DNA from: Psammoneis japonica
Lineage: Eukaryota
DNA length: 64,000 nt
Direction: 5' to 3'
Assembly (NCBI GenBank): GCA_008632985.1
Contig: QPGO01000105.1
Coordinates: forward strand, 1-64,000
Both the position numbers and the translations under genes were made by a program. Of the stretch, positions 6,178 to 61,564 are shown in pieces (position 1 is the first letter of the stretch; the number at the start of each line of letters is the position of its first letter). The notes below the pieces were generated by a model. The model was given only the letters and a program-made list of their open reading frames with translations, did no database searches and had not been told where the DNA came from.

Positions 6178-7963
6178 GAACAATGACAGCAGTGTGTTCT
6201 TTGTGATCTGCTGGCCCCTGCAAGGCAAAGGAAATGACACATGGGCAATGAGCACATTTGCCATTTTCTCTCCCAGCAGTGTGCTGCATCTGCTGCCTGT
6301 GAATTGGGCCAAGGGCTCCACAGCTTTCTGCTTGCAATCACTTCTGCCAGGTTGCTTGTGTCCCCAGCTTCCAAGTGCAGCCACTTTGCATGTCCCAAGA
6401 AGGCACAAACCTCAAGCATTTTGAGCACAATTTGCCTGGATTGCTTGTCCACCTTTGTGGTGGCAGAGCAGCTGCCTCCATGTGCCAGATGTCAGCCAGC
6501 ATTAAAAGTCACTTCTGCCAAATTGTTTGTGTCCCCACCAGCATTTGAGCATGGCACTTCTTTTCATGCCCCAAGGCACAAAACCAAAGCAGCATTTGGC
6601 ACAGCTTGTGCAGGTTGCTTGGCCACCTTTGTGGTGGTGGCAATGCAGCCTCTGACAACAAAGCAGCAACATTGACAGCAACAAGCAAAGAAAGCATTTT
6701 TCATTTGTTTTTGCTCACTTTGTTGCAACCCTCCTTGGCTGTTGTTGGGTGTCAGAAATCATGCCCTGTGCTCACTCACAACAAAACAACCACCACAAAC
6801 ACACTTCCTGTTTACAACATTTGCATGAGCAAGAATTGTGTGCTGGAGGGTGTTTGGAAAAGTGCCCTTGCCAATTTCCAAAACAAGGTGCCCACATTCC
6901 TTCAAACAAATCCAGTCACTTGGCACATTTTGTTGCAAGTTGTTGTTGCTGAAAACACTCAAAGTGTGCTCCTTGATCATGGTGCTGCTGCTGTCAGCTT
7001 TTGACAAGCACCGCTCCGAAGTTAATTGGCTTGCAAGCGTCACATCAAAAAATGTCAACACCTGAAGCCGAGCAACTTCTGAGTGTTGATGGACAGGAGC
7101 ACTGCTGCAAAGAAACAAAATGACAAAGATGCAGCTCTTGCTGGGGCAAAGAAGCTGCACAAGCTTTGGATGTGCTCATGTGATGCAAAAGCACACTCCA
7201 CCCCTGTGGAAATGTGTCAAATTCAAACCAAGTTTGGGCAGTGTGTTGTTCAAGATGATGACTGCTTTGGAGTCAATGGGAGGCACTCATCTTTGCACTT
7301 GGCAGTCCACCCCAGAACATTCATGTGGTTGACACTGTGACAGCCATTGTCCTTTCAGAACCACACCCCAAACAATGAGCCTCAGCAGAGTTCAAAATTT
7401 CTTCACTGATGCTGCTGTTTAAAACAACGCATCTTGATCCCCCTTCAGTTCCCACTGCTGTGTCCAAATGACTTCAAATGTGCAAAAGAAGAAAAGCTGC
7501 TCTGCCTGAGTTTGAAGAAGGAAAACATTTGCTTTTTGAGAAGAAGCTGCCGCGAGCATCCCATCTCGTGAAATTGTCATGCATGGTCCAGCAGCAATGA
7601 ACCGCTATGACATGCCTTCACTCGCGCTCACTTTGATGTTGCGTGCGGGACGCGTGCGGGACGCGTGCGGCAGTCGAAACAAACAACCAGAGAGCCCACA
7701 ACATTGCACATTGAAACCGATGTGAGTTCATCAATCAAGAGTGAGCATCTTTTCTGGGATTGGCACGACGATGATGTGATTGTGTTCATAAAACGCTTTC
7801 ACACAGCATGTGCCTGTTATTACTCCCAAGACAATAAACGAGAAGTTCCGCGATTGATCCTTGACGCGTATGAATTTTGACACTCTGCCACAAAGAAATC
7901 AACAGTAACAGCACATGGCATACGTATCTCCAAAGGTTATCTCTAGGTGCTATACATTTATGC

Positions 7964-20415: not shown

Positions 20416-20769
20416 GGGGTGCTTTGTAATGTGACTTGTAGTTCTTTGTTAGCATTTATGACGTTGGAAATTGAGCTTTAAAAACCCTCAGAGCTTCAAC
20501 GGATGTAGCGCTGTATTATAGGAAGGAAACTAGTTCCACCAGAACCAATTTGGGCTTTGCGACAGTCTATGATGACACAGCACATTATGAATCATCTCCT
20601 TGAAATGGGCAAGCAGTGGAGACCGATGCTATATAAGGCCTGACATGCGTTGCGTCCGACGGTGCGTACCGATAGATTATGTTGTGTTGCGATGCGGCAA
20701 ACGGCAAATGCAATTGAAACACGAGCTCAAATTTAATGTTTATATAGCGCCCCGCATGGATGTTGTTGC

Positions 20770-23700: not shown

Positions 23701-23960
23701 TGAAGAGACCAACCATGTTCTCAAGATTGGGGTTGACCTGAAAGCAAAACCCAGAAAATGGGGGGCACTGTTTTGCCAGTTGCCTAAAATTGCCATGGGT
23801 GCTGCCTTTGTTTGTCAAGACAGCAAGGAACAAGGCATGTTCAGTTCTGTCATGCCTTGAATGCCTCCCTGAGTCGGCAAAACAGAACATCAAGTCTTGG
23901 AGACAAGCCAAGGCCCATTTTGAGAGAGTCTGTCTGTAGATGTTCCGCAGGTCATTGCAT
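20770..23960. other. TpA/CpG-depleted hypermutated block
   Basis: Near absence of TA, Tyr-free six-frame ORFs and sharp edges. Confidence 0.85.
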
Positions 23961-27839: not shown

Positions 27840-29230
27840 TCCGCACAGCGTGGAGGGCATTGTGATTACAGTGTGACATGAGGCAGAAGTGCTGCTCAAC
27901 CCTGCACTGAGCCATCAAGAGAGCTCCACGCCAGCAGATGCCCCAATCGCAGTGTCAGGAGAGGACGATGTGTCGCAAAGGCTGGTGAGTGCATCTGTGT
28001 TGAGATCGCAAAGGCCAAGCACGTGAGCCACAAAATAAAAAGTTGCTGAGGTGTGGCGTCAAAAAAAGCAGCTTCATCATGAGGGCAGATCATGTGCCTG
28101 TGCACCTGCTTTTTAGAGACGCAAAGCAGCCAGCTTGTCACCCACACTCTCAAGTCTTCTGTTTTCTTTTGTGCAGGCCTGTGTGCACTCGTTCTCAACT
28201 TTTCTTTTTCTCCAGATGACAAACACCCCCCAAGCCCACCCACACGCGACAAATGCTGGGGCAAGAGCTCACACCACAAATGCGCTGGTGCTCAGATCAT
28301 CCCACCCTGAAGTCTGCCCTTTCTGCCATGCTCTTTTGCCAATGACCAAGACTCTTGCTCCTTGCAGAGCGCTTGTTTTGAAGCCCCAAACAATCTTTTG
28401 ACCATGTTCAAGAACCTGGTGCAGCCGCGGCTGACCAGACCAGCACACTGTTTGCAACTTGTGCTTGCACCATCAAAACCAACAATTTCAAGCATTCTGA
28501 GCAAGGCTGACAACAAGAGCAGCTGTGCTGGTGGCAGTCACACAACGCTGCACAACAGCTCGCAGATTTCCAGAGAGAGCCAGCTCCAAGCAAAGAACAC
28601 CCTGGGCAGTCTGACGAGCACAAGGAGTTTGTTGACAGATGGGTGAAAGAGGGGCACACCAGCACTGGCTTTTAGAGAGTCTCAAATTCTGGTTGCTTGA
28701 TCAGCCAGCTCCACCCACGGTGTGTTTGCAGGATCAAAAGCAACCAAAATGACCCAATCCAAACAAGTTGATGGCACTGTCACAAGCTCCCAGGGTGCCT
28801 GCAATGTGGGAACTGGCATTTTGAAATGAGAATGCTGGAAGAAACTTGAGCTTCAATGAGCTAAAAAAAACACATTTGCGTTGCAGGGGAGAATGGGTCC
28901 AAGGCCATCTTCGTGCTGTTGGGCACGTCCAGTGGGCGCAGATTGATGCTCTTGCATGGGAGAATGGCAAGAGGGAAATGCACATGGGCAAGGTGTGGAA
29001 ACATCAAAGGATCAGACCGCAAAGCATGATGGGGTGTGGATTGAGAATGAACCACTTTTGGACAATGATGGTGAAGCGCGCGAGGGGCACTTTGCAACAT
29101 GAAGTGTGGTGGTTTCATGCATCAAAGCATTGGTGACAATGGAAATTGAGATTTAACAACTTTCAGAGCTGTCACAGGAAGGAAACTATTTCCACCAGAA
29201 TCAATTTGTGCCTTGCGACAATCTGTGCCA
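27840..29230. other. TpA-depleted hypermutated block
   Basis: Same dinucleotide signature as the other blocks. Confidence 0.8.
28870..29230 (+). pseudogene. Decayed duplicate of the 3' end and downstream flank of the MORN gene at about 20205-20570
   Basis: ggagaatgggtcca...ggagaatggcaaga...ggtgtggaaaca...tggattgagaatga...ggaaggaaacta.ttccaccagaa is collinear with 20224-20545; frameshifted. Confidence 0.85.
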
Positions 29231-33133: not shown

Positions 33134-35689
33134 TTTGTTATTACTTTACAAAGCTGTTAAGGCAGCTCTTTGAATCCAACGTGACGATTATAGAATGATT
33201 CGGTGTCAATGATACAATAAGATCCGACCGACGGAACAAGAGAAGAGCGAATAGGGTCGGCTTATGTTGTGATGCGCGTCACTGCGCTTCATTTTTTTTT
33301 GGCTTGCTGTGCACGTTACAGACCTCCCAAGCCGGGAGTGCACGCACCTGTACCTGCGTGGTTTCAACACAGAGATAGAATGACTGATGGCGGGAATGAC
33401 CTAAATTTTCAACCGCACAGAGTGCACACGAGCTGCATGCCGGCATCCAGCAGTTCCAATCCGTCCCCTGACTTGTTGGAAAAGCTTGGCAACAAGAATC
33501 TGGCTGCATTAAAAAGTGATTTGGAAAGTGCACCAGCACAAAAGTGAAGGTTGCACTGTGTCAAAACTTTCACTTTCTTTTTCACATTGACAATGAGCAA
33601 AAGTCATGCCGCAACATGATCGCAGGAGGCAAAGCTGTGCAAACACCAGGTGCAATGCCTCCCCCCATGTTTGAGAACCTTGGTGAATGTTGAGTCTTGG
33701 AAACATTGCTTGCTCTGCAAAAAGGGTGGCTCTTGATCTGGGTCAGCACTCCATTGCAACACTGTCAGCGCACACAAGAGGCAGCTGTCCATCACAGAGA
33801 CACACGAAGAAGAGAGCTCACAAGAAAATTCTCTTTACAAAGAGATGCCATTTGGCTTGTCCCATGCTGGGGTTTGCATTGCACAACCTTTGTCAAACTG
33901 GAAGCTGCGCACCAGAGTTGATTGGCTGGGGGCTGCACCACATTTTTTGTCGATGCAGTTGTGCCACCTCATTCTGCAACTCTGGTGCTGTGTCAAAGAC
34001 CATGTCACCACCTTTGCTGCTGGCACTCTGTTGGGGATTGTGAAGGTGGCTCAGGCTGTCATGCATTGCTTGTTGAAGACTTTGTTGTTGTGTGCTGTCT
34101 TTGTCATGTCAAACATTTTGCTGAGCAACATTTGTTCCAGCCAATCTGAAAAGCACTTTGTGGCAAGGGCAGCTCTTGCTGCCTTGTTGGCTGTTGGCAT
34201 CTAGTGCTGTTCAGTGTGGGCTGGTGGGCATGGTGGGCTCTTGCTCTGGGCTTGTCCTGCAACCACGCAAGGAACCACTCCCATCAGAAGAGCACAGCTG
34301 AGGGGTGCAAGCTCTTGCTTGTGTTTCTGTCCCAAATCCTTCAAAGCCTTGGCCAGGTCCAGGTCCAACCAACTCTTTTCTGAAGCTGTGTCTGGTGCTC
34401 TGGTGCTCACTGATGACAAACGTCTGATGTCAAGCACACACACAAAAAACTTTTTGAAAGGGGCATGTGCACTCTCCAAATGTTTTTTATTTTGTGTCAT
34501 GTGCTCTTCATGAGACAACAACAAGAGAAGTGCCCAAACCCAAATCTCAAACATGCAACTGAGCATTGGCCCATGGCAAGCTGTGGCACTTTTCAGCACA
34601 GCCCACATGACTGGCAGCTCTCATTGAGCATGCCAGAGGAGCACACTGTGTCTGTGCCAGCCAACCTGTCATGTGTGTCAGAAGCAATGACAGCCATGCC
34701 TGCTCTCATGTTGCCAAGTGCCACAACAGCACAATCAAGAAACATCTGGCTGGATGGCTCTGTTTTGCCACAGAATGATGCGGCACATTTTGCTGCAGTT
34801 GATGCCACCACAGCAGCTTTTTACACCTTGGCTCTTGGGGAGGAATGTCACAGAAATTTGTTTGTGAAGCAAATGAATGGCAACCCAGCAGGCAGCTCAC
34901 CATGACAAAGTTGGAATGCCCAAAAACCAAAGACAGTGCTGTTTCCTCATGAAATTTATTTTTGACAAATTGCTGGCCATTTTTCACAACCAAGAAGTTC
35001 CAAAGATGGGAAAGAGCTGAGTTCTGAAGGCCCCAACAGATGTCCCAATGTCCCAAAGGAGGTCCTCAAAAACTTGGGCAACAGGTGCTGCAACTGCACT
35101 TTGCCACAATGCAGGCGCAATCCCACATTGTTTGCCCATGCAGAAAGGTGGAGTCCATGCCAGGTCATGGCTTCTTTGCCATTTTTGCACTGCTTCCTGT
35201 AGAATGCATGCATTTGCACTTCTGCAATGAACCTGAGACACTGTGCACACTCTTGGATGTTGAACGGAAAAGATTTGTTGATCGCATGAGTCAGATTTTG
35301 CCTTTTTGGAAAGGAGAAACAAGACAGTGAGATCGACTGAGAAAGCCAAAAGGGAGATTGCTCCTGCTGGATGCAAGAGGTCACATTCTAGCCAGCTCTG
35401 GTTCAATCTCACAGCTTTCACTTTTTTGTGCTTTGTTCTGCTTTCAATCGCACTCATTCTTCAAGCATGGCGCACTTCAGCAATTCTTGGTGCTCCAAAC
35501 TCATTTGGGTCAGAGCCATTGCCATTGATCAGAAGGCCTGCATGAACACATTCTCAACACCAATGTCACATCAAATCATTTTGGATGTGTTCTCAAAGGA
35601 AAAAATGATGAGATGATGTTGTTTGTTTTTGAAGCTGCCTTTGTGAATCTCTGTTGTCTCATCTTTGCTGCTGTGGATGTCAGACATGA

Positions 35690-37030
35690 GCAGAAGATCT
35701 GCAAAGATGTGTGCAAGCATTTGCTCTTTTTGTTTTGCGTGCGCTGCATGCTTTTCTTTTTGAGTCCATTTGCCCTTCTTGAGTTGATGCCCATTTCTTG
35801 CACAAACATTTGTGTTTCCTTTTCTGCACCATGTGCATTTCTTTTTTAATCTGTTTGCCCTTCTTGCTTGGTGTGCCCATTTCTTGCACAAACATTCTCA
35901 TTTCCTTTTCTTGTCATTGAAGCTGCTGCCATGATGTTCTGGAGAGCAATTGCACATCTTGCACTTGCTCCCTCAGCAACATGGCAATGTGCACACACTT
36001 TTGCTGCTGGCAGCAAACAAGATGCTGCAACAAAACCATTGTGAAGGCACCCATTGGTTGTCATGTGCTGAAGCTGGTTTTGCTTTTGTGATGACCATGG
36101 AAAAGCTCCCTGCACCACAAAGACCATTTGCAACCACATGTCACCCAGCTTAGAAAAAAGGGTGAGAGCATGGCTGTTCTCTTGAGACAGCAGGCTTCTC
36201 AAGTTCTCTCACTCTTCCAGGAAGTGTGCACAGTTTCCTCCTCCACTGGCACCTTGGTCATCACCACAGTCATGTTGAGCCACCTTGCTGCTTTTGATTT
36301 GCTCCTCAAGCCAGCCGTGCTCTGCAACAACTCTTTGGCAAGTCTCTCTGTGTGCAGCCATGTGCTGCTGAAGATTTGTGAAGGGAGCAAGGGCACAAAT
36401 TTCAACAACAAGCAGATTTGTTTCTTGTTGCACTGCAAGTCAGCTGCAAGTCCATGCCGCCACAGGTGTCTTTTGGGTGCCACAGTCATGTTGAGCTGCT
36501 GTGCTGCTGCACTCATTGTGTCTTTAAAAACAAACTCACAACATGTGCTGCACTGGAACAAGCCAGCTCTTTTGATCAATCAGCTTGGTGGCCCACATGT
36601 TGTGCATGTTGCTTTTTGTTGGGGAAAGCACACTCTTGATGTCAAAAATTGCATCACATTGGCATTTGTGCCAATGGCATTGACAACTGCCTGTGGCTGC
36701 AAAGTTGGTGCATCCCTGCTCTCAGCTTCATGATCAACACTCTCAGCCCCAGGCTCACAAAAACAATTTGGAGGCTCTTCTGTGCCCAGCTTGTCAAAAT
36801 CACTTTGTGCCCACATGCGCTGTCACTTTCATCAAGATTTTCTTCATTGTTGGAGTCTGGCTCAATTGTTGTTGGGTGACCAATCCCCAAGAAAGGCCAG
36901 GTGCCACAACCTGACTTTGGTCTCTGCTGGGGACAAAGAGAAAGAACCCAAGCAAGCCCACCTCCAACAAAATCTGCCACATCTGAGATGCTGACCTTGC
37001 AGCATTGTCAAGTGCCCCAGATGACTGCTG
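35690..37030 (+). repeat. Dispersed repeat R, copy 1 (other copies at about 40755-41990 and 45735-46995)
   Basis: Collinear sequence tgcccatttcttgcacaaacatt...gcagcattgtcaagtgccccagatgactg is present three times. Confidence 0.85.
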
Positions 37031-37188
37031 GAGACTGGAGCAAACATTCTTCGCCTTTGCAAAGCTGCACGTCAGGTGTCCCCACCACAGGAGCAGAGTG
37101 CGCGAGAAATGGTCATTGATGAGCACACTGATTGGAGATGAGATGCAAGAGTTTCAATGATGTGATCTGTTGATTGACTTGACCCACA

Positions 37189-37528
37189 AGCAGTGAGCAC
37201 CTCTGTTTTGTGGGAAAAAACCGTTTTAAACAATTGGGTGGATGGATGTGTTTCAATGGCCACATCTCTCCCTCAAACACTGTCATCCGAACAAACCCTC
37301 AGTGTCTCACCCCCTTTTCATGTGTGCGAGGAATTTGGTTCTGCTGCTCGTTTTCTCCTGTCACAAACAGCAGAACCAAATTCCTTGTGCCAGCACATGA
37401 AAAGGGGGGTGAGACACTGAGGGTTTGTTCGGATGACAGTGTTTGAGGGAGACACATGATCATTGAAACACATTCATCCACTGAATTGTTCAACGGTTTT
37501 TTCCCACAAAATTTGGGTGCTCACTGCT
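37189..37528. mobile_element. About 340-bp foldback/MITE-like inverted repeat
   Basis: Arms of about 155 bp: agcagtgagcacc...ggaatttggttctgctg pairs with cagcagaaccaaattcc...gggtgctcactgct around a short loop. Confidence 0.8.
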
Positions 37529-37960
37529 CATTTCCAAGAATTTGAAAAGAAAGTTGGGGACCCACCGTGTGGCTTGCAAATCAGCGCTTGATGTGGCTGA
37601 TGTCACGTGTGGTCAACCCCTGACTTTGTGCCATTGTTTCAGACCGAGCTGGCCACAAAACTTGGTTGGATAGAGTTGTTGTGTTCTGCTCGTAGAGGCT
37701 ACACCATTTCTACGTACGTAGAATTCCACTGCGGGAAACGATTTTTGAAAGTACGTACAAGTGCGTAACCCCATTTTTAGAGTCGAAAGCTTCCTGCCAA
37801 AACTCCAAAACTGTTACATGTTGTAGGAACAACTCAGCTTTCTGGTGTGTTTGCACATCGCCGACCGGATTGAGAGAAAGATGTTCATGCGCAAAGGCAA
37901 GGTTCTTGACACAACCGAGCCTTTAATGCGGCTCTACTCTTTTGCTAGACAGCACAAATT

Positions 37961-40068
37961 ATGATACAACGGGCGGTGCGTCTTGGTTTCCTCGCAGGCC
38001 TGGGCCATCGACGATTCCACCCGAACGTGAAATGTCTCTCATCGATGGTGTCGAGGCGTTCGTTGTCGCAACTGAGAATGGCAGAAATGGTGCCAACCTC
38101 TATTCCCTCCTTTGATGATGCGCCCAAGAGTGAGCGGTATCTTTTCGACTTCTTTAAAAAGTTTCTGCCTAAAGAAGACTTCACTGTGTGGTGGAATATT
38201 CGACTTGTTCCTTCGTCCCGACAAGTGGATTTCGTCGCACTGGCCCCAACAAAAGGGCTTTTGATTGTCGAAGCCAAAGGCTACCCACTTGACTGGATTG
38301 TCCAAGGTGATATGCAGCAGATCATTTTGAGAAGACCATTCGATCCTCTGTCTGAAGCTCGTGCTGAAAAGCACCCATTGTGGCAGGCCGAAGGATACAA
38401 GAACCACCTGCTAGACATGCTCAAGGCGGAGAAAATACTCTGTCATCCAAGTGGTTCTCGCCAGGGACAGCCATTGCTCCCAGTGGGACGTTGCGTTGCG
38501 ATGACAGCGGCCAAGCGTCAGAACCTAAAACGTGAAAATGCCCATGGTGTCTACGTGAATGATATTTTCGAAGACAACTCTATACTGTTTCGAGATGATA
38601 TTGAAGCTTGGAAAACGCTTCCCCCGGAGCAGCGGATAAAGCATTTCGAGTCTCTATTTGATTCTCGGGTCGAATGGCATCCAGAGTGCCCATTGACGAA
38701 CGATCAGATTCAGACGATTAGAGGCTTGCTGCACCCGACGACGCAAATTTCCCGAGTACCGGCACAGGCAGCAAGCTGGAATCTTGGTGGTCTTCGCCAC
38801 ATGCCGACTGATGCCACGGTGCTTAAGAGTTTAGATTTGAAGCAGGAACAAGTTGCCAAAGGAATTGGAACGGGGCATCGAATTCTTGCTGGGGTGGCAG
38901 GATCGGGGAAAACACAAGTTTTGCTATGTCGGGCCAAGATCTTATCGGAATGCAATCCCGACGCGCGTATTCTGGTCACCTGCTACAACAGGACCCTTGC
39001 AAGTTATCTGAGATCTCTTCTTTCTCCGTATTCAAACGTGGAGGTTTCGCACTTTCATGGATGGGCGGAGAAACGTGTGCTCTTGCCGCTGTACACTGGC
39101 AAAAGAGTAAAAGATGAGGAAACAGACGGTGTAATCGCAGAATCTCTTTATCTTCACTGTGAGACCGATCGACACGATCGATACGACGCTATACTGGTGG
39201 ATGAGGCGCACATGATGAGCGGGGCATGGCTCAAGAGTCTAGTCGGTTTCTTGAAAGACCCTGATGGTGGCGACCTGCTTATTGTTTGTGATCGATCGCA
39301 GATGCTGAAGCAGCGTTCTTCTTTCACGTGGTCTTCGGTAAATATCAAAGCACGAGGGCGCACAATGACGTTCTCTCACAATTATCGAAACACAAAGCAA
39401 ATTCTCAATATGGCTTGGGGACTAATGACATATCTGATTGGCAACAAAACAGATTCCGTGTCCAAAGATGAAGCCTTTCCTCTCGTCAAACCGTCAGCGG
39501 CGCGAAGGGATGGCCCAAAACCCACGCTCTTACCTACAAACAATTGGAAGAAGTCGCTGTTGGAATATCTTGGTTACTTGCTGGACAGCGGTGTCCCGTC
39601 GAACGACATTGCGATACTTTATCGATGGAATGTGCGAGGATTCGTTAAAAGACTCAAGGAGGACATTGAACGTCGTTTTGGAAGCGGTATTGTTTATTGG
39701 GTCAATCAGGACCAACAATCAAAAGACCGGTTCGGTTCGCAGAAAAAGGGCATAAGACTCATTACTCACCAATCGTCGCTTGGCTTAGAGTTCAAGCATG
39801 TGATTGTAATTCGACCGGAGCATTTTGAACGTGACCTGTTCTCCCGTCAAAATGCGATGACGTGGAAGGTGCTTGTAAGGAGATACACGTTGGATTAACT
39901 CGAGCTTGTGAAGAGCTAACTCTTATCGCTGAAAGTGTCAGCCAAATATCTGTTTTCTTTAAACAAAAGGCTTCCGAGCTGGATCTTGTCATAGCTGATC
40001 CTCATATGCTGGCTGACTTGCAGTACCCAACGGAAGAGAACGCGCCTGAACACCGCCACGACAACTGA
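37961..40068 (+). CDS. NERD nuclease + SF1 (UvrD-like) helicase, copy 1; 1-bp frameshift at about 39840
   Basis: NERD VDFV...GLLIVEAKGY...HPLWQAEGY; Walker A GVAGSGKT; Walker B ILVDEAH; NYRNT; GLEFKHV; HVGLTRA in the shifted frame 39862-40068. Intronless. Confidence 0.88.
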
Positions 40069-42151
40069 CTGTCGTGGCTCTAATGATAACCCCAACAAGT
40101 GGTGGTTTTCCTTTTCACCACTGCGGCCTGTGTGTATGAAAATTTAATGGTTGGCTTTGTAATACGTCGAGTCTAGCCAGAACTGCTCTTTATGTTACAC
40201 TGTTCGTCACACCGAAATGAAATAGCTAGCTACACCACCACGCCAAGTGAGGACTTCATCTGCGTACCCGCACAAAACTGTCCGTCGTACGCTGATTTCT
40301 TAAGCCTGACATCCACTTTCTTATTAGTCACCGTCAGGAACGATTTTGCATTGGGCTGAGCTGACGATGCCTTTTCTGACATCGTCATCGTCCTCCGCAA
40401 GATGGTTGGAATCGGTCAGTTCTTGGGCTCGAGACGATGACGTCACCACGTGCAAAAATCGCTGCCGCACCGACAATCATGAACCAATGAAAACAAACAA
40501 ACAAAACAATTGAAATCCAAAGTTTGTTTGCACTGGGCCCAAATCAAGAAGAAGCACTGTCACAAATGCTTTCTGTGTCAAAAATGTGGTGAAGGAATTG
40601 AAACTTTCAAAACTCTGAAACAATTTGTGAGAGAGACCAAAGTGACTTGCACACCCTTCAGCGCAAGAAATGCCACACCACCAAGCAGCAAGAAGGAAGA
40701 GCAGCCTGGCACTGAGCAGCGCCCTTGTGCCAAACAGACTTGGCAAGCTCCACTTTGAACTTGTGTGCAAGCATTTGCTCTTTTTGTCTCGCGCACCATG
40801 TGCTTTTCTTTTTGAGTCTGTTTGCCCTTCTTGCTTGGTGTGCCCATTTCTTGCACAAACATTTTGTTTCCTTTTCTCATTGTTGCAGCTGCTGCCATGC
40901 CATCCTGGAGAGCAATTGCACATCTTGCATTTGCTTCCTCAGCAACATGGCAATGTGCACACTGTTGCTGCTGGCAGCAAACAAGATGCTGCAACACGCA
41001 ATTGTGAAGGCACCCAGCGGTTGTCATGTGCTGAAGCTGGTTTTGCTTTTGTGATGACCATGGAAAAGCTCCCTGCACCACAAAGACCATTTGCAACCAC
41101 ATGTCACCCAGCTTAGAAAAAAGGGTGAGAGCATGGCTGTTCTCTTGAGACAGCAGGCTTCTCAAGTTCTCTCACTCTTCCAGGAAGTGTGCACAGTTTC
41201 CTCCTCCACTGGCACCTTGGTCATCACCACAGTCATGTTGAGCCACCTTGCTGCTTTTGATTTGCTCCTCAAGCCAGCCGTGCTCTGCAACAACTCTTTG
41301 GCAAGTCTCTCTGTGTGCAGCCATGTGCTGCTGAAGATTTGTGAAGGGAGCAAGGGCACAAATTTCAACAACAAGCAGATTTGTTTCTTGTTGCACTGCA
41401 AGTCAGCTGCAAGTCCATGCCGCCACAGGTGTCTTTTGGGTGCCACAGTCATGTTGAGCTGCTGTGCTGCTGCACTCATTGTGTCTTTAAAAACAAACTC
41501 ACAACATGTGCTGCACTGGAACAAGCCAGCTCTTTTGATCAATCAGCTTGGTGGCCCACATGTTGTGCATGTTGCTTTTTGTTGGGGAAAGCACACTCTT
41601 GATGTCAAAAATTGCATCACATTGGCATTTGTGCCAATGGCATTGACAACTGCCTGTGGCTGCAAAGTTGGTGCATCCCTGCTCTCAGCTTCATGATCAA
41701 CACTCTCAGCCCCAGGCTCACAAAAACAATTTGGAGGCTCTTCTGTGCCCAGCTTGTCAAAATCACTTTGTGCCCACATGCGCTGTCACTTTCATCAAGA
41801 TTTTCTTCATTGTTGGAGTCTGGCTCAATTGTTGTTGGGTGACCAATCCCCAAGAAAGGCCAGGTGCCACAACCTGACTTTGGTCTCTGCTGGGGACAAA
41901 GAGAAAGAACCCAAGCAAGCCCACCTCCAACAAAATCTGCCACATCTGAGATGCTGACCTTGCAGCATTGTCAAGTGCCCCAGATGACTGCTGGAGACTG
42001 GAGCAAACATTCTTCGCCTTTGCAAAGCTGCACGTCAGGTGTCCCCACCACAGGAGCAGAGTGCGCGAGAAATGGTCGTTGATGAGCACACTGATTGGAG
42101 ATGAGATGCAAGAGTTTCAATGATGTGATCTGTTGATTGACTTGACCCACA

Positions 42152-42491
42152 AGCAGTGAGCACCTCTGTTTTGTGGGAAAAAACCGTTTTAAACAATTGG
42201 GTGGATGGATGTGTTTCAATGGCCACATCTCTCCCTCAAACACTGTCATCCGAACAAACCCTCAGTGTCTCACCCCCTTTTCATGTGTGCGAGGAATTTG
42301 GTTCTGCTGCTCGTTTTCTCCTGTCACAAACAGCAGAACCAAATTCCTTGTGCCAGCACATGAAAAGGGGGGTGAGACACTGAGGGTTTGTTCGGATGAC
42401 AGTGTTTGAGGGAGACACATGATCATTGAAACACATTCATCCACTGAATTGTTCAACGGTTTTTTCCCACAAAATTTGGGTGCTCACTGCT
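42152..42491. mobile_element. Second copy of the foldback inverted repeat
   Basis: Same sequence as 37189-37528 at offset 4963. Confidence 0.8.
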
Positions 42492-42938
42492 CATTTCCAA
42501 GAATTTGAAAAGAAAGTTGGGGACCCACCGTGTGGCTTGCAAATCAGCGCTTGATGTGGCTGATGTCACGTGTGGTCAACCCCTGACTTTGTGCCATTGT
42601 TTCAGACCGAGCTGGCCACAAAACTTGGTTGGATGGAGTTGTTGTGTTCTGCTCGTAGAGGCTGCACCATTTCTACGCACGTAGAATTCCACTGCGGGAA
42701 CCGATTTTTGAAAGTGCGCACAAGTGCGTGACCCCATTTTTAGAGTCGAAAGCTTCCTGCCAAAACTCCAAAACTGTTGCATGTTGTAGGAACAACTCAG
42801 CTTTCTGGTGTGTTTGCACATCGCCGACCGGATTGAGAGAAAGACATTCATGCCAAAGCGGGCTGCCTGCAAAGGCAAGGTTCTTGACATGACCGAGCCT
42901 TTAATGTGGCTCTGCTCTTTTGCTGGACAGCACAAATT

Positions 42939-45047
42939 GTGACACAACGGGCGGTGCATCTTGGTTTCCTCGCAGGCCTGGGCCATCGACGATTCCACCC
43001 GAACGTGAAATGTCTCTCATCGATGGTGTCGAGGCGTTCGTTGTCGCAACTGAGAATGGCAGAAATGGTGCCAACCTCTGTTCCCTCCTTTGATGATGCG
43101 CCCAAGAGTGAGCGGTGTCTTTTCGATTTCTTTAAAAAGTTTCTGCCTGACGAAGACTTCACTGTGTGGTGGAACATTCGACTTGTTCCTTTGTCCCGAC
43201 AAGTGGATTTCGTCGCACTGGCCCCAACAAAAGGGCTTTTGATTGTCGAAGCCAAAGGCTACCCACTTGACTGGATTGTCCAAGGTGATGTGCAGCAGAT
43301 CATTTTGAGAAGACCATTCGATCCTCTGTCTGAAGCTCGTGCTGAAAAGCACCCATTGTGGCAGGCCGAAGGATACAAGAACCACCTGCTAGACATGCTC
43401 AAGGCGGAGAAAATGCTCTGTCATCCAAGTGGTTCTCGCCAGGGACAGCCATTGCTCCCAGTGGGACGTTGCGTTGCGATGACAGCGGCCAAGCGTCAGA
43501 ACCTAAAACGTGAAAATGCCCATGGTGTCTACGTGAATGACATTTTCGAAGACAACTCTGTGCTGTTTCGAGATGACATTGAAGCTTGGAAAACGCTTCC
43601 CCCGGAGCAGCGGATAAAGCATTTCGAGTCTCTATTTGATTCTCGGGTCGAATGGCATCCAGAGTGCCCATTGACGAACGATCAGATTCAGACGATTAGA
43701 GGCTTGCTGCACCCGACGACGCAAATTTCCCGAGTGCCGGCACAGGCAGCAAGCTGGAATCTTGGTGGTCTTCGCCACATGCCGACTGATGCCACGGTGC
43801 TTAAGAGTTTAGATTTGAAGCAGGAACAAGTTGCCAAAGGAATTGGAACGGGGCATCGAATTCTTGCTGGGGTGGCAGGATCGGGGAAAACACAAGTTTT
43901 GCCATGTCAGGCCAAGATCTTATCGGAATGCAATCCCGACGCGCGTGTTCTGGTCACCTGCTGCAACAGGACCCTTGCAAGTTATCTGAGATCTCTTCTT
44001 TCTCCGTATTCAAACGTGGAGGTTTCGCACTTTCATGGATGGGCGGAGAAACGTGTGCTCTTGCCGCTGTACACTGGCAAAAGAGTAAAAGATGAGGAAA
44101 CAGACGGTGCAATCGCAGAATCTCTTTATCTTCACTGTGAGACCGATCGACACGATCGACACGACGCTATACTGGTGGATGAGGCGCACATGATGAGCGG
44201 GGCATGGCTCAAGAGTCTAGTCGGTTTCTTGAAAGACCCTGATGGTGGCGACCTGCTTATTGTTTGTGATCGATCGCAGATGCTGAAGCAGCGTTCTTCT
44301 TTCACGTGGTCTTCGGTAAATATCAAAGCACGAGGGCGCACAATGACGTTCTCTCACAATTATCGAAACACAAAGCAAATTCTCAATATGGCTTGGGGAC
44401 TAATGACATGTCTGATTGGCAACAAAACAGATTCCGTGTCCAAAGATGAAGCCTTTCCTCTCGTCAAACCGTCAGCGGCGCGAAGGGATGGCCCAAAACC
44501 CACGCTCTTACCTACAAACAATTGGAAGAAGTCGCTGTTGGAATGTCTTGGTTACTTGCTGGACAGCGGTGTCCCGTCGAACGACATTGCGATACTTTAT
44601 CGATGGAATGTGCGAGGATTCGTTAAAAGACTCAAGGAGGACATTGAACGTCGTTTTGGAAGCGGCATTGTTTGTTGGGTCAATCAGGACCAACAATCAA
44701 AAGACCGGTTCGGTTCGCAGAAAAAGGGCATGAGACTCATTGCTCACCAATCGTCGCTTGGCTTAGAGTTCAAGCATGTGATTGTAATTCGACCGGAGCA
44801 TTTTGAACGTGACCTGTTTCTCCCGTCAAAATGCGATGACGTGGAAGGTGCTTGTAAGGAGACACACGTTGGATTAACTCGAGCTTGTGAAGAGCTAACT
44901 CTTGTCGCTGAAAGTGTCAGCCAAATGTCTGTTTTCTTTAAACAAAAGGCTTCCGAGCTGGATCTTGTCATAGCTGATCCTCATGTGCTGGCTGACTTGC
45001 AGCACCCAACGGAAGAGAACGCGCCTGAACACCGCCACGACAACTGA
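42939..45047 (+). pseudogene. NERD-UvrD helicase, copy 2; open frame but first ATG changed to GTG and many TpA-derived substitutions
   Basis: Relative to copy 1: ERYL>ERCL, TCY>TCC, RYD>RHD, TYL>TCL, EYL>ECL, VYW>VCW, QYP>QHP and several I>V/M/T changes. An internal ATG (MAEMVP) remains. Confidence 0.8.
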
Positions 45048-47163
45048 CTGTCGTGGCTCTAATGACAACCCCAACAAGTGGTGGTTTTCCTTTTCACCAC
45101 TGCGGCCTGTGTGCACGAAAATTTAATGGTTGGCTTTGCAATGCGTCGAGCCCAGCCAGAACTGCTCTTTATGTTACACTGTTCGTCACACCGAAATGAA
45201 ATGGCCAGCTACACCACCACGCCAAGTGAGGACTTCATCTGCGCACCCGCACAAAACTGTCCGTCGTACGCTGATTTCTTAAGCCTGACATCCACTTTCT
45301 CATTGGTCACCGTCAGGAACGATTTTGCATTGGGCTGAGCTGACGATGCCTTTTCTGACATCGTCATCGTCCTCCGCAAGATGGTTGGAATCGGTCAGTT
45401 CTTGGGCTCGAGACGATGACGTCACCACGTGCAAAAATCGCTGCCGCACCGACAATCATGAACCAATGAAAACAAACAAACAAAACAATTGAAATCCAAA
45501 GTTTGTTTGCACTGGGCCCAAATCAAGAAGAAGCACTGTCACAAATGCTTTCTGTGTCAAAAATGTGGTGAAGGAATTGAAACTTTCAAAACTCTGAAAC
45601 AATTTGTGAGAGAGACCAAAGTGGCTTGCACACCCTTCAGCGCAAGAAATGCCACACCACCAAGCAGCAAGAAGGAAGAGCAGCCTGGCACTGAGCAGCG
45701 CCCTTGTGCCAAACAGACTTGGCAAGCTCCACTTTGAACTTGTGTGCAAGCATTTGCTCTTTTTGTCTCGCGCACCATGTGCTTTTCTTTTTGAGTCTGT
45801 TTGCCCTTCTTGCTTGGTGTGCCCATTTCTTGCACAAACATTTTCGTTTCCTTTTCTCATTGTTGCAGCTGCTGCCATGCCATCCTGGAGAGCAATTGCA
45901 CATCTTGCATTTGCTTCCTCAGCAACATGGCAATGTGCACACTGTTGCTGCTGGCAGCAAACAAGATGCTGCAACACGCAATTGTGAAGGCACCCAGCGG
46001 TTGTCATGTGCTGAAGCTGGTTTTGCTTTTGTGATGACTGTGGAAAAGCTCCCCGCACCACAAAGACTGTTTGCAACCACATCTCACCCAGCTTAGAAAA
46101 AATGGCAAGAGCACAGCCAATCTCTTGAAACAGTGGGCTTCTCAACTTTTCTCACTCTTTCCATGAAGTGCGCGCAGTCTCCTCCTCCACTGACACCTCA
46201 GTCATCACCACAGTTGTGATGTTGAGCCACCTTGTTCATCTTGACCTGCTCCTTGAGCCAGCTGTGCTCTGCAACAACTTCTCTTTGGCAAATCTCTCTG
46301 TGCACAGCCACGTGCTGCTCAAGATTTGTGAAAAGGGCAACAAATGACACAAGCCTCAACAACAAGCAGATTTGTTTCTTGTTGCACTGCACAAGCCAGC
46401 CAGCAGCAAGTCTGTGCCACCACAGGTGTTTTGGGCACCACAGTCACGTTGAGCTGCTGTGCTGCTGCGCTCATTGTGGCTGGAAACAAACTCAGATTGT
46501 GCGCTTCACTGGAACAAGCCAGTTCTTCTGATTGATCTGTTTGGTGGCCTCAGTGTTGTGCATGTTGCTGTTCATTGGAAGGCACTCTTGATGTCAAAAA
46601 TTGCATCATGTTTGCATTTGTGGCAACAGCTGCAACAACTGCTGCAGCTGCTGCAAAGCTTGGTGCACCCCTGCTCTCAGCTCAATGACCAATGCTCTCA
46701 GCCCCAGGCTCACAAAAACAGCTTGGAGGCTCTTCTGTGCCCAGGCCAGCTTGTCAAAATCACCTCATGTCCATGAGCTGTCACTTTCATCAAGATTTCC
46801 TTCATTGTTGGAATCTGGCTCAATTGTCTTCGGGTGACCAATCCCCAAAGAAAGGCCAGGTGCCACAACCTGACTTTGACCTCTGTTGGCATTGCTGGGA
46901 ACAAAGAGAAAGAACCCAAGTCTGCCTCCAACAAAATTTGCCACATCTGATGCTGGCCTTGCAGCATTGTCAAGTGCCCCAGATGACTGGAGACACATCC
47001 CATTTTGCACGCACGATTGAGAGTCAGACGTGCGTGCCGGTACGAAGCACCACACCCAGCCATGCGCGGTTTCATTGTTCAGCAAGGTGTCGAGTGGTCG
47101 ATCGTTGAGAGTTTTTGTCGCTGTCCCTGCAGAGTTCGATTCCGATCATTTTTGAGGACAACC

Positions 47164-55557: not shown

Positions 55558-55799
55558 GAGTGTGCTTTGCGTCGTTTTGTTGTTACTCTCACAACAAAGA
55601 ACAAAGAAACAACAGCTAACCTACCGACCCGCAATGCAAAGTGATGATGATGTCGTGCCGTGTGGAATGTTATCGTTGCTCTTTGTGTGTTTTTCCCTTT
55701 TCAATTTTATTCGTGACCAGAGATTTGCTATGCTCGCTCACAACGGACCATGCTGACGTACTTGATTCGAATCGTACGACTGGACGTCAAGGCATTTTG

Positions 55800-58300
55800 G
55801 AACCCAGGTGATGGTTTGAGGACTGCGGATGGGCATTGCAAGGTTGATCTTGTGGTGTTGTGGCCCCATGTCACATTGTCCCCAACAGCAGCACAGACTT
55901 GACTTCCCCAGCTCCAGAGTGCAAGGATCCCATGATGGCACCAACCAACTCAACAGCTGCAAGCTGAGGGCATTGGTCATCTCTGGCAATGGTGGGCCCA
56001 GGCGCACCCAACACTTTGAGAGCTGTGGTTGAGTGGTTTGCAAGGTTGATCTTGCAGTGTTGTGGCTCCATGTCACCTTGTCCCCAACAGGAACAGTGAG
56101 TCAACTTTTGTGCCCCCAAAGAACTCCAAAGGGAAAGACCCCGTGACACAGCACCTCAAAACCAACCTTGAAGCTGCACGCTGAAGAAACTGACAGAGTG
56201 TCTGGAGGACCCCAGCAGGCAACACACTGAGAACTGTGGTTGAGCATTGCAAGGTTGATCTTGTGGCCCCATGTCATCTTGTTCCCAACAGCAGCAGTGG
56301 AGTTGAGCCACCAAACTCTAGAGTGAAAGACCCCATGACACCAGTGCCAACCATCCTGACAACAGCAGGCTGAGGGCAGCATTGGAGGTCTCTGGTGTGG
56401 GCGACACATTGAGAACTGTGGTTCCTTTTGAACACTGCAGGGCATTGATCTTGTGGTGCTGTGGCCCCATGTCACCCAGCCCCCAACAGCACCAGTGGAC
56501 TTGAGCCTCTCCAAACTCCAGAACAAAAGACCCCACCAACTGACCTGACAACAGCAAGCGCGGGACTTTGGCAGTGTCTGACAGACCCCTGGCAACACAC
56601 TGAGAACTGTGGCTGAGCATTGCAAGGTTGATCTTGTTGTGTTGTGACCCCACAATGTCATGCTGTCCTCAACAGCGGCAGACATCTTGAGTTTCCAAGT
56701 TCCAGAGTGAAAGGGCCCCCCATGGCAGTGCCAAGAACCAACCCAGTGGCTGCAAGCTGGTGGGCAAACTGGTGGTGTCTGGCAAACCTCAGAGGAAAGA
56801 TTGAGAAGTGTGGTTGAGCATTGAGAGGTTGATCTTGTGGTGTTGTGATGACCCAACAATGTCACCCACATGTTGTCCTCATCAACAGTGGCAGACTTGG
56901 CAAGTTTCCAAGCTCCAGGGTGAAAGGACCCCATGACAGTGCCAACCAACCCAAAAACTCCTGCAAGCTGAGCAAACTGGCAGTGGCTGGCAGACCTCAG
57001 AGGAAACTTTAAGAATGTGGTTGAGTGTGTTGCATGGTTGATCTTGTGGTGTTGTGGCCTTTGCCTTGTCTCCAATGGCAGCAGCAGACTTTTGAGTCTC
57101 AAAACTTGTCCAGAGTGAAAGGAGTGCCAACCAACCTGATGACAGCAAGCTGAGGAGGGCACTGGCAGTCTCTGGCAGAGCTCAGGCAATGCTTTGAGAA
57201 CTGTGGGCTGAGCATGTTGCAAGGTTGCTTGATCTTGCAGAGTTGTGGCCCCACACCTTGCCCCCAAGAGAAGCATGCCCAGGCCAGGTTTCCATTCAAC
57301 TCCAGAGTGAGAGGACCCCATGACAGCAGCAACCAACCTGACAACAGCAAATGAAGAACACTGGCAGGACCCACGCAAATCCCACGTGTCACCTGTTCAA
57401 CAAGTTGCAACTTGGCAGAAGTTTCAGTTGCTCAAATCTCCCTGATTTAATGGATTTGGGTCAAGGTGTGAAGCCATCAAATTGTTTTGAAAAGAAGCAC
57501 AGCAAACTTTCAATGAAAGCACCACTTTTGATGCTTCTGACCAATGGATGGATGCCGGAATGTGAAATGTGCGGTGAGCACTCGAGGGCAAGTTTCACAA
57601 CATTTTCCATTGTTGTGCTCACAAAATCAATTCTTTTTGACATCTTCATTGTCAGGGTGAAGTTTTCTTGCCCATTGTTTCAGAAAGAATGTGGGTCAGA
57701 AGAGCAGCGAAGTGCAGACAAAAATTTTGTTGTGCAAATCAAACATCTGAGGAGCCGCTCCCTGCCAGTGCTTGGCACCACTTTCCAAGACAAACCAGCT
57801 CAAGAGCCCCACAGACAACTGGCTGAGATGTGCGTTGCACATCAATGACAGATCTCCAAGAGGTGCTGCACAGCTTGGAGACTTTCATCTGCTGCTTCAG
57901 TTTGACAAGCCTGGCCCATCACAACCTCCCCAGCCCAACAGCTTCCAGCATCTCAAGCACTTGCCAAGCTTTGCTTTTTTCATTCCAATCACCCACAATC
58001 ATTGCAATTGAGAAAGCATGACAAGACACTGTTGATTTGACAACAACACACAATGAATCTTCTGGCAGTCCAAGTCGATTTGGTTGTCAAGTTGGGTGGC
58101 TGGCAATCCACTTCCAGGCTGGTCTGCATTTGTTTCTGCTCAAGCAAAGCCACCCCAAAAAGCCAGACACATCAGCCCACCTGCAGCAGAAATTTTGATG
58201 GAGAGCAAAAGAAAACTAGCAAAAGTGTGACAATTGACAGTTTGAGTGGCAATCACCCACCAATGTCCTTCCTCATGCGATTGTGGAAAAAACGATGCCT
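55800..58300. other. TpA/CpG-depleted hypermutated block
   Basis: Same dinucleotide signature. Confidence 0.85.
55830..57350 (+). repeat. Degenerate tandem array, about 8 units of about 180-210 bp, TpA-depleted
   Basis: gcaaggttgatcttgtggtgttgtggccccatgtcac recurs at about 55838, 56040, 56249, 56441, 56622, 56825, 57033 and 57225, each followed by ccagagtg..aggaccccatga. Confidence 0.88.
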
Positions 58301-61503: not shown

Positions 61504-61564
61504 NNNNNNNNNNNNNNNNNNNNNNNNNNNNNNNNNNNNNNNNNNNNNNNNNNNNNNNNNNNNN
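61504..61564. other. Assembly gap (N run) followed by poly-C
   Basis: Run of n characters. Confidence 0.99.

Follow-up and report, generated by a model that had tools for sequence, protein, structure and literature searches.

Results

Organization of the locus

The 64-kb stretch of DNA that was analyzed (the window) proved to be a mosaic in which the genes are normally composed and about 22 kb of spacer DNA has been stripped of nearly all its TA dinucleotides, a state we refer to as scrubbed. Intact open reading frames (ORFs) in the window reach 1,263 aa. The locus of most concern here consists of two tandem units of ~4.97 kb (spacing 4963–4980), each with a scrubbed flank followed by a gene for a superfamily 1 helicase, and a partial third copy that has the flank only. 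The features are as follows.

1..7419, no strand: scrubbed domain, within which the sub-block 2712–5774 has lost TA and has normal CG
3289..5109, + strand: TA-scrubbed ORF with a BTB_2 domain (8 TA against 100 expected, one Tyr in 607 aa, CG normal)
20746..23874, no strand: scrubbed domain, almost devoid of TA as well as CG
28115..29153, no strand: scrubbed domain
33511..37670, no strand: scrubbed domain 5' of helicase copy 1
35826..40792, + strand: first copy of the tandem unit, in which a scrubbed flank and a hairpin repeat precede a helicase gene with TA sites intact
37189..37528, no strand: inverted repeat at the border of flank and gene, arms of ~170 nt, 84% complementary; copy-2 counterpart at 42152–42491
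37671..40326, no strand: unmutated TA-bearing island of copy 1, 100 TA sites, with scrubbed DNA on either side
38078..39898, + strand: helicase ORF copy 1, NERD and SF1 (UvrD-like) domains, keeping the TA states taken as ancestral
40326..42655, no strand: scrubbed domain separating the two helicase copies
40793..45771, + strand: second copy of the tandem unit, in which an identical scrubbed flank precedes a helicase gene changed at 48 of 100 TA sites
42635..45305, no strand: hypermutated tract of copy 2, first to last converted TA; the flanks are TA-free, so the true edges are invisible
43056..45047, + strand: helicase ORF copy 2, full-length open frame of 663 aa, 23 amino-acid-changing codons relative to copy 1
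45281..47040, no strand: scrubbed domain 3' of helicase copy 2
45772..46989, + strand: flank-only part of a third copy, sharing 84% identity with the flank of copy 1 and having 23 TG<->CA double swaps relative to it
55776..58216, no strand: scrubbed domain containing degenerate ~200-bp internal repeats

Substitutions between the tandem units

Alignment of units 1 and 2 with MAFFT gave 4,983 columns with 85 substitutions and 20 gap columns. A sequence-only reading of this DNA had counted about 60 substitutions between the gene-bearing parts of the two copies, of which about 48 were changes of TA to TG or CA, about 4 were changes of CG and none created a TA in copy 2. The MAFFT tabulation of the same span (37620–40470 in copy 1) returned 61, 48, 4 and 0, respectively. 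The 48 positions with TA in copy 1 had either TG (29) or CA (19) in copy 2, and the remaining island substitutions were CG>TG/CA (n = 4), TG>CG (n = 1) and eight others, four of which were accounted for by two CA<->TG double swaps. Copy 2 has 55 TA sites, and every one of them is also TA in copy 1, so there were no reverse changes, and by our own arithmetic a 48:0 split has a two-sided sign test p of ~7e-15.

The rates of change in the gene island indicated a process that is both context-specific and regional, as the sequence-only reading had proposed. TA sites were changed at 48/100, in copy 2 only, CG sites at 4/188 and all other positions at 9/2,230. Five of the nine other positions were non-signature changes, which puts the excess at TA at ~300-fold per base (our arithmetic). 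In the TA-free flank (36056–37620) the copies differed at a single position, 37115, in line with the earlier description of the TA-lacking duplicated flanks as essentially identical. The control was a comparison among 549-bp internal repeats of an LRR gene in a normally composed stretch, where TA<->TG/CA accounted for 56 of 705 differences (8%).

The scrubbed flanks of copy 1 and copy 3 had 45 adjacent double mismatches, 23 of them TG<->CA swaps, as would be expected had the copies independently resolved an ancestral TA or CG. The arms of the hairpin repeat had two CA/TG swaps only and were uninformative.

Polarity of the changes in the helicase gene

The helicase is of bacterial type, with 42% identity to cyanobacterial proteins, and 40 homologous helicase proteins served as the outgroup. 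Changed codons in copy 2 numbered 29, of which 23 alter the amino acid. At 14 of these 23 replacement sites the residue of copy 1 (the TA state) agreed with one or both of the two closest homologues, including Y369, R285, Y540 and T563, which are invariant among the homologues and at which copy 2 has the derived state. The copy-2 residue was matched at three sites (aa 617, 624 and 644, all conservative changes) and at one more (aa 32) by the distant majority only; five sites were uninformative. Comparison with the homologues, at 14 sites versus four, thus indicated that TA is the ancestral state and that change runs from TA to TG/CA, the direction claimed by the sequence-only reading. In copy 1 the last ~60 residues are out of frame owing to a derived 1-nt deletion near 39838. 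Searches for relatives of the helicase gave 160 pattern matches in metagenome contigs and 308 in viral contigs (IMG/VR), of which none was confirmed in either set.

Target motif and strand behavior

The targets in copy 2 were not changed evenly. TAY targets were changed at 37/109 and TAR targets at 11/91 (Fisher p = 4e-4), and TTAA was changed at 0/8. The 3' neighbor of the changed base was a pyrimidine in 37 of the 48 cases and G in only 7 (of 39 available). The same preference was apparent among the TA dinucleotides that survive in scrubbed DNA. In 22,278 bp there were 55 survivors, with 39, 16 and 0 of these having zero, one and two TAY targets, respectively, versus 299, 847 and 472 in the rest of the window (p = 4e-21). 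The preferred target is R-T-A-Y, and Y-T-A-R (TTAA, CTAG, CTAA) survives. An equally good reading of this motif is a purine on the 5' side of T.

Neither strand was clearly favored, as TA>TG (29) and TA>CA (19) did not differ significantly (p = 0.19). Among the 48 changes there were no strand runs (z = 0.93) and no spatial clustering (z = 0.02).

Composition of the scrubbed domains

In the scrubbed spacers TA is reduced to 0.04 and CG to 0.13 of the expected frequency, and TG/CA are doubled. Across 500-bp bins of the window, TG+CA plotted against TA+CG had a slope of -0.946 +/- 0.033 (r = -0.93), pyrimidine-purine (YR) steps summed to 119.8 in scrubbed bins versus 121.2 in normal bins, and the base composition of scrubbed DNA was unchanged. 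The loss of TA and CG from the spacers is therefore a one-for-one, in-place replacement by TG and CA. In the intact genes, TA at the codon 3|1 phase was at ~0.65 of expectation, equal to the other phases. This uniformity across codon phases, together with the 23 of 29 changed codons that alter the amino acid, indicates targeting rather than selection.

CG is changed to TG/CA in most of the fully converted domains. The CpG survivors were enriched for GCG (ratio 1.97) and depleted of TCG (ratio 0.52), a bias that is stronger than we would expect from spontaneous decay. Blocks that are TA-free with normal CG were found twice, at 2712–5774 of the window and at 6480–8480 of a metagenome contig (L060, below), and the reverse was never seen, from which it follows that CpG erasure is slower than TpA erasure.

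Pfam matches were absent from all 112 ORFs of 75–129 aa in the scrubbed blocks and likewise from those of at least 130 aa. Viral hallmarks in the scrubbed targets were sought with Pfam on the scrubbed ORFs and by searching the helicase against IMG/VR, and none was found; a foreign origin of the targets is possible. Rfam and tRNA scans of the whole window gave no matches, and no deaminase domain was identified among the window ORFs scanned.

Read-level support and a second case

Contigs assembled from a public sequencing run, which is possibly the source data of the assembly itself so that agreement with the window is not independent, reproduced the scrubbed spacer 33000–35879 with one other letter. 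The two-copy scrubbed flank was reproduced with no other letters at a word depth of 129. Over the helicase gene the Logan contigs were mosaics of copy-1 and copy-2 letters, as short-word assemblies collapse the tandem repeat, and 18 of the 27 other letters equalled the paralogue. Six of the nine variants that the paralogue does not explain were of TA/TG/CA type, which suggests an extra haplotype, and both states of the differing sites occurred among the contigs.

These data also bear on the trigger. The sequence-only reading had called the pattern a "reverse RIP", a term that implies duplication as the trigger, and this framing is not supported: a single copy has changed (48:0), and the scrubbed spacer 33000–35879 had a word depth of 59.9 versus 55.7 for neighboring unique sequence, although summed contig word depth is not copy number.

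A metagenome screen for DNA with <=2 TA and >=90 TG+CA per 500 bp produced a contig of an uncultured mat eukaryote (L060) that has the same mosaic of scrubbed blocks. The TA survivors in its scrubbed blocks had zero, one and two TAY targets in 14, 9 and 0 cases versus 154, 423 and 213 in its remainder (p = 3e-6). A further contig, L062, was 100% identical to L060 over 10,275 bp, so the pair offers no population contrast. An Atlas search gave a weak lead to Haptophyta for L060 and no taxon for the HAD protein of the window.

Two housekeeping-type genes in the window are diatom-like and had at most 62% identity to any protein in a collection that includes MMETSP. Based on these two genes and on there being no near-identical protein, the window appears to be distinct from the chlorarachniophyte Bigelowiella natans.

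Discussion

Regional TpA hypermutation as the probable cause

The locus is real and belongs to a just-described kind of TpA hypermutation. The sequence-only reading could match the pattern to no named mechanism. Its counterpart is a 2026 preprint on B. natans, in which integrated viral DNA of mutation-accumulation lines underwent TpA to TpG/CpA hypermutation (Mettrop et al., bioRxiv 10.64898/2026.01.13.699255, 2026-04-14). Observed here are the direction and context of the changes, their restriction to certain regions, the one-for-one replacement and their presence in deep read data. We think it probable that what they record is regional, context-specific TpA hypermutation of the B. natans kind in diatom-like nuclear DNA, with deamination as the favored chemistry.

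TpA being palindromic, its change to TpG or CpA would be a change of A:T to G:C on either strand. The process would work on delimited domains, sparing gene bodies, rather than genome-wide or on both duplicates. The spacers would represent conversion to completion and helicase copy 2 a half-way state (48/100), with copy 1, 5 kb off, having none. The chemistry, on which rather less than half of our confidence rests, would be deamination of adenine to inosine in T-A-Y by a TadA/ADAT-like or other nucleic-acid deaminase, presumably recruited to silenced, CpG-methylated chromatin. We know of no natural dsDNA or ssDNA adenine deaminase demonstrated in this role in algae.

The alternative that most deserves attention, although we consider it unlikely, is a thymine route, in which a TET/JBP-type dioxygenase or other enzyme modifies the T of R-T-A (e.g., to 5-hydroxymethyluracil, 5hmU) and the product either pairs wrongly with G or undergoes error-prone repair, giving T>C. 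Its sequence outcome is that of adenine deamination, including the 29 TG and 19 CA changes with no strand runs, and the motif can be read its way. In dinoflagellates 5hmU occurs preferentially at TpA. To our knowledge this base has not been reported from diatom-like algae, nor is oxidized thymine known to us as a strong T>C mutagen. The B. natans authors prefer an ADAT2-like deaminase (Mettrop et al.). An RNA route, by which a transcript underwent ADAR-like A-to-I editing, was reverse-transcribed and then served in gene conversion of copy 2, is very improbable. ADARs prefer a 3' G and act on dsRNA, and we know of them in metazoans only. The changed bases here have a 3' pyrimidine in 37/48 cases and are poor in G (7/39), both strands were changed without runs, and the spacers were converted too. 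What speaks for this route is the hairpin repeat upstream of the helicase gene and the 5' T, since 5' U/T is the ADAR preference as quoted in the preprint (Mettrop et al.).

The other explanations concern whether there has been a TpA mutator at all. On one reading TA and CG were purged from the spacers by selection or avoidance (nucleases, nucleosome positioning); in its favor, most genomes have a mild shortage of TA, and the spacers show a striking uniformity. We give this very little credence, as one young paralogue changed at half of its TA sites versus 5/2,230 other positions, 23 of 29 codon changes damage the protein, and selection could not work so fast on a single copy. Still less probable is the opposite polarity, with copy 2 ancestral and copy 1 hit by RIP-like C>T at CpA. 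A comparison of just two sequences is undirected, and classical RIP does change CpA to TpA; however, the outgroups share the copy-1 residue at the 14 sites above, the 22 kb of TA-poor DNA with doubled TG/CA is the reverse of a RIP product, and the TG<->CA swaps require a TA or CG ancestor. An artifact of assembly or base calling, from miscalled modified bases or chimeric paralogue collapse, would fit the mosaic Logan contigs, in which the paralogue supplies most of the other letters. We regard it as just as remote, given that scrubbed flanks were reproduced with 0–1 other letters at word depths of ~60 (single) and 129 (two copies), that long ORFs are intact, that both site states occur among the contigs, and that the unrelated metagenome contig has the same blocks.

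Significance

Regional TpA hypermutation was first reported in a single chlorarachniophyte, in a 2026 preprint (bioRxiv 10.64898/2026.01.13.699255). Its footprint in a diatom-like genome, where it is far denser and complete, and in a contig of an uncultured eukaryote suggests that the process is widespread among algae. The tandem pair constitutes a natural experiment, with one copy untouched, one half-converted and identical flanks, and it places constraints on any candidate enzyme: RTAY is erased and YTAR spared, there are no strand runs, and hits need not fall in both repeats. Because CpG loss accompanies it, the process can be linked to silenced chromatin in a way that is open to testing. 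There are also practical consequences, as the removal of TAA and TAG from six frames leaves long spurious ORFs in the spacers that gene callers may annotate, and scrubbing hides the ancestry of the affected sequences.

A more speculative proposal, which we would not expect to hold but consider worth stating, is that TpA and CpG loss are two activities of one dedicated, chromatin-directed DNA-editing defence common to unrelated algal lineages, rather than the work of a mutator with ordinary decay of methylated cytosine beside it. These may comprise the chlorarachniophyte (published), this diatom-like protist and the uncultured mat eukaryote. Under such a defence, domains would be permanently "sterilized", the A of R-T-A-Y being deaminated and the C of T/C-C-G more slowly, and the target would be the base after the pyrimidine in both palindromic pyrimidine-purine steps. 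If true, chromosomal DNA would have a natural editor of adenine (and cytosine), one that parallels RIP in function but keeps reading frames open where RIP closes them.

Comparison with known systems

The likeness to RIP of ascomycetes lies in dinucleotide-specific transitions, a missense-riddled duplicate, skewed dinucleotides and a plausible role in genome defence. RIP changes CpA to TpA and leaves an excess of TpA, whereas here TpA was destroyed, to 0.04 of expectation in the affected DNA. RIP mutates both members of a duplication, whereas none of the 55 TA sites of copy 2 had a derived state in copy 1. Also unlike RIP, a spacer with the depth of unique sequence was affected, and premature TAA or TAG stops cannot arise. 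Deamination of 5mC turns CpG into TpG/CpA, as was seen here in the same blocks, but it cannot yield TpA loss, and CpG change lags (4/188 in copy 2). The view of the sequence-only reading that the locus reflects neither RIP nor plain CpG decay is thus upheld.

TadA and ADAT2-3 act on A34 of tRNA, which follows U33 and in tRNA-Arg(ACG) is followed by C. This T-A-C context was retained by the early DNA adenine base editors evolved from such enzymes, and it agrees with the T-A-Y preference observed here. Deaminases of this type have the motif HxE...PCxxC.

The closest comparison is with B. natans. The full-text literature searched, which covered sources other than subscription journals, contained no further papers on TpA hypermutation and none on diatoms. 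In the preprint, the B. natans targets are integrated viral (NCLDV or virophage) sequences, hypermutation arose de novo within culture generations and in only some lines at rates orders of magnitude above background, and an ADAT2-like deaminase is the favored enzyme (Mettrop et al.). Those rates were measured directly, whereas ours is a footprint read from sequence alone, in which the extra TA-type variants of the sequencing run (six of nine) are the one hint of recent change. The host here is diatom-like, the targets yielded no viral hallmark and the spacers have been driven to completion. CpG has also been erased, a term absent from the available preprint text, which likewise does not describe the RTAY/YTAR rule or the strict one-copy-only pattern. 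Common to both are A>G/T>C changes exclusively at TpA that are regional and on/off; the signature changes here were 48 of 61, with 48 in copy 2 versus 0 in copy 1. B. natans also has long-term TpA-poor, CpA+TpG-rich clusters. The cluster criterion of the preprint identified 124 clusters in the whole ~95-Mb B. natans genome (Mettrop et al.), and applied to our window it selected 22 of 64 1-kb windows, in five clusters.

Divergence Between Tandem Gene Copies

The window contains a head-to-tail array with a period of 4.97 kb, whose duplicated gene encodes a NERD and SF1/UvrD-like helicase:

35826-40792, unit 1 (copy 1)
38078-39898, helicase gene of copy 1
40793-45771, unit 2 (copy 2)
43056-45047, helicase gene of copy 2
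45772-46989, third copy, flank only

Alignment of units 1 and 2 over 4,983 columns revealed 85 substitutions and 20 gap columns. At 48 of the 85, a TA in copy 1 was replaced in copy 2 by TG (29) or CA (19), and the opposite change was never observed, as all 55 copy-2 TA sites were also TA in copy 1. In the TA-bearing island of copy 1 (37671-40326), 48 of 100 TA sites were altered, along with 4 of 188 CG sites and 9 of 2,230 positions elsewhere (two CA<->TG double swaps account for four of the nine). A single base differed in the TA-free flank at 36056-37620. These data confirmed the sequence-only reading, which had described both the TA to TG/CA divergence and the near-identity of the TA-less flanks. 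For the control, the 549-bp internal repeats of an LRR gene (50607-52802) were chosen as DNA of normal composition, and TA<->TG/CA changes there made up 56 of 705 differences. Between the flanks of copies 1 and 3, 23 of 45 adjacent double mismatches were TG<->CA swaps, each the trace of a single ancestral TA or CG resolved separately in each copy.

An inverted repeat of ~340 bp (two ~170-nt arms, 84% complementary, with a short loop) was located at 37189-37528 and 42152-42491, exactly at the border of scrubbed flank (TA, and mostly also CG, replaced by TG/CA) and helicase in both copies. It may represent a MITE-like insertion or give rise to hairpin RNA. The LRR ORF (49212-53000) encodes 1,263 residues with 9.3% Cys, and its four 549-bp repeats are 71-89% identical.

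As two sequences alone give no polarity, this was set by an alignment of 40 helicase homologues (identities of 60%, 53% and then ~42%, the last group cyanobacterial). The helicase copies differ at 29 codons, 23 of them missense. At 14 sites, including the invariant Y369, Y540, T563 and R285, the copy-1 residue was shared by one or both of the two nearest homologues; the copy-2 residue was favored at three conservative sites (aa 617, 624 and 644) and, by the distant majority only, at aa 32, with five sites uninformative. Because the homologues side with copy 1 at 14 sites, TA is the ancestral state and copy 2 the mutated copy, which upholds the direction originally claimed. Classical RIP would be the opposite change, CpA>TpA, and is contradicted by those 14 sites, where homologues carry the copy-1 (TA) state. 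Copy 1 has a lesion of its own, a derived 1-nt deletion near 39838. The copy-2 frame is open from end to end, as expected of TA>TG/CA changes, which cannot make a new stop codon.

The helicase copies and an ORF directly past the array (46987-48024, a circularly permuted YpsA/SLOG domain) are bacterial-type genes within a diatom-like nuclear region. They were possibly acquired horizontally, which, if true, would suit the idea that foreign DNA is targeted.

Scrubbed Domains

The window is divided into composition states with sharp borders, and scrubbed DNA totals 22,278 bp.

Dinucleotide content of genes and scrubbed domains
TA: genes 3.87%, scrubbed domains 0.24%
CG: genes 5.34%, scrubbed domains 0.77%
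TG: genes 7.5%, scrubbed domains 11.5%
CA: genes 7.4%, scrubbed domains 11.4%

Scrubbed domains
1-7419
20746-23874
28115-29153
33511-37670
40326-42655
45281-47040
55776-58216

A third state, lacking TA and with normal CG, occurs at 2712-5774, and the BTB_2 ORF inside it has 8 TA versus 100 expected and one Tyr in 607 residues. No CG-free state with normal TA was found within the window. Per 500-bp bin, TG+CA regressed on TA+CG with a slope of -0.946 +/- 0.033 (r = -0.93), and the pyrimidine-purine step sum was constant (119.8 in scrubbed versus 121.2 in normal bins). The loss of TA and CG is an in-place, one-for-one replacement; base composition is unchanged because the GC gained through TA loss offsets that lost with CG.

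Intermediate TA (0.22-0.30 of expectation) was observed in the 1-kb bins of 62001-64000, 7001-8000 and 33001-34000, with CG at 0.58-0.89 of expectation; some of these bins span a scrubbed-domain edge. The region 62001-64000 may be a domain caught mid-process, like copy 2. An ORF at 54034-55620 (minus strand; 529 aa, no Pfam match) has one CG at codon positions 1-2 versus 31 expected, the other two phases being normal; a 51-bp tandem repeat lies within it (54698-54851).

As TAA and TAG are lost from scrubbed blocks, leaving TGA as the sole stop, long open frames overlap in all six frames (blocks 33500-37700, 40300-42700, 20700-23900 and 1-7400; e.g., 212 aa at 36095-36733 and 231 aa at 45456-46151). 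Such frames have 0% Tyr, ~6% Cys, ~6% His and no Pfam match, and false genes are likely to be called in these blocks.

Sequence Context of the Changes

With A taken as the mutated base, 37 of 109 TAY targets were converted in copy 2 versus 11 of 91 TAR targets (p = 4e-4), and none of eight TTAA sites. The 55 TA survivors in scrubbed domains had 0, 1 or 2 TAY targets in 39, 16 and 0 cases, versus 299, 847 and 472 for TA sites outside these domains (p = 4e-21). Based on the survivors and the copy-2 targets, therefore, RTAY is erased and YTAR survives. The copy-2 changes showed no strand runs (z = 0.93), spatial clustering (z = 0.02) or coding-strand bias (29 versus 19, p = 0.19). Among CG survivors, a 5' G was enriched (ratio 1.97) and a 5' T depleted (0.52; p = 1e-14).

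Targeting and Sequence Data Support

In intact genes, TA spanning codon positions 3|1, where changes are largely synonymous, stood at ~0.65 of expectation, the same as in other phases. Scrubbed-domain borders lie no more than a few hundred bases from ORF ends, and the copy-1 island had no conversions although it is flanked by scrubbed DNA on both sides. The process is targeted and not a product of selection, and the sparing of the copy-1 island, the conversion of copy 2 and the gene-bounded domains therefore indicate on/off switching per domain. This differs from RIP in that both repeats are neither required nor struck; with only copy 2 altered, the proposed label of "reverse RIP" is not supported.

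A single public run, X1, contains this stretch, in the form of 657,387 contig records (140.7 Mb). These matched the scrubbed spacer 33000-35879 save one letter, and the common flank 36408-36918 with no other letters at double depth (129); an artefact was rejected on these grounds. Contig word depth, which is not copy number, was 59.9 in the spacer versus 55.7 in the adjoining unique gene. Across the helicase gene the contigs were collapsed mosaics of both copies, with 18 of 27 "other letters" being the paralogue letter. Six of nine non-paralogue variant events were of the signature type:

35772, TG/TA
37757, 39281 and 39344, TA>TG
44007, TA>CA
43665-6, TG>CA swap

These suggest an extra allele or copy with separate conversions. 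X1 rules out consensus errors; as it may be the assembly's source data, it is not independent replication. The assembly has a gap of 61 N at 61504-61564.

A Metagenomic Example

We scanned 80 metagenome loci (418 kb) encoding relatives of the window's ERV gene, counting 500-bp bins in which TA numbered no more than 2 and TG+CA no fewer than 90. Such bins numbered 70 of 253 in the window and 15 of 1,557 in the metagenome loci, all on contigs L060 (12/83) and L062 (3/40); the remaining 15 loci of at least 8 kb had none in 884 bins. L062 is 100% identical to L060 2620-12894, and the two therefore represent one organism, an uncultured eukaryote. L060 lacks TA and is CG-poor at 1-1560 and 16450-18000, and lacks TA with normal CG at 6480-8480, these blocks lying between genes of normal composition. 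Its surviving TA sites had 0, 1 or 2 TAY targets in 14, 9 and 0 cases versus 154, 423 and 213 (p = 3e-6), the same YTAR bias as in the window. In the tree its ERV gene branches far from that of the window, and a haptophyte affinity is a weak lead.

Mechanism and Comparison with Known Systems

The window records a domain-restricted, TpA-specific process that converts A:T to G:C, prefers RTAY sites and exceeds background by ~300-fold per base (-ln(0.52)/2 versus 5/2,230/2); a slower CpG>TpG/CpA loss accompanies it. The favored chemistry, which is an inference, would be deamination of the adenine to inosine in a T-A-Y context. TadA/ADAT enzymes act on U33-A34-C35 and early adenine base editors had a TAC bias, whereas ADARs prefer a 3' G; the context here matches that of the former two and not that of ADARs. 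A thymine-modification route, possible though less likely, would yield an identical footprint. The CpG loss fits 5mC deamination within the same silenced chromatin. Its extent (CG at 0.13 of expectation) and TCG>GCG bias would, however, also allow for an active cytosine deaminase or for a single enzyme having both activities.

Full-text literature searches found no precedent for TpA hypermutation beyond Mettrop et al. (bioRxiv 10.64898/2026.01.13.699255), whose matching signature supersedes the earlier view that no named mechanism applied. As described in the preprint's main text, two integrated viral regions of Bigelowiella natans took 231 of 302 new mutations in mutation-accumulation lines; all save one in these regions were A>G or T>C, all of those at TpA, at ~1000-fold over background in a subset of lines only, and an ADAT2-like deaminase was put forward. 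The words "CpG", "tandem" and "trinucleotide" are absent from the preprint's main text.

The host here is different, as the window's host-type genes are diatom-like. The best matches of these, a SEP-UBX exon and a two-exon ERGIC/thioredoxin/ERV gene, were 59% and 62% identical, and neither had a near-identical protein in a collection including MMETSP, which covers B. natans according to the preprint's main text; a gene from B. natans would have been expected to match itself there. All named matches were diatoms except one labelled Alexandrium, and the ERV gene fell in an unresolved polytomy among diatoms. In the ERV-thioredoxin tree, the EukProt protein P0229 (labelled as the dinoflagellate Alexandrium tamarense) was placed, strongly supported, among the Thalassiosirales, an order of diatoms, and probably reflects contamination or prey in an Alexandrium transcriptome.

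By the preprint's TpA-poor criterion, 22 of 64 1-kb windows here qualified, forming five clusters in 64 kb, compared to the 124 given in its main text for the whole B. natans genome. The footprint is real and out of the ordinary, and adds fresh constraints on the mechanism of TpA hypermutation; it is an example, from a new lineage and much denser, of the kind of process described in B. natans in 2026.
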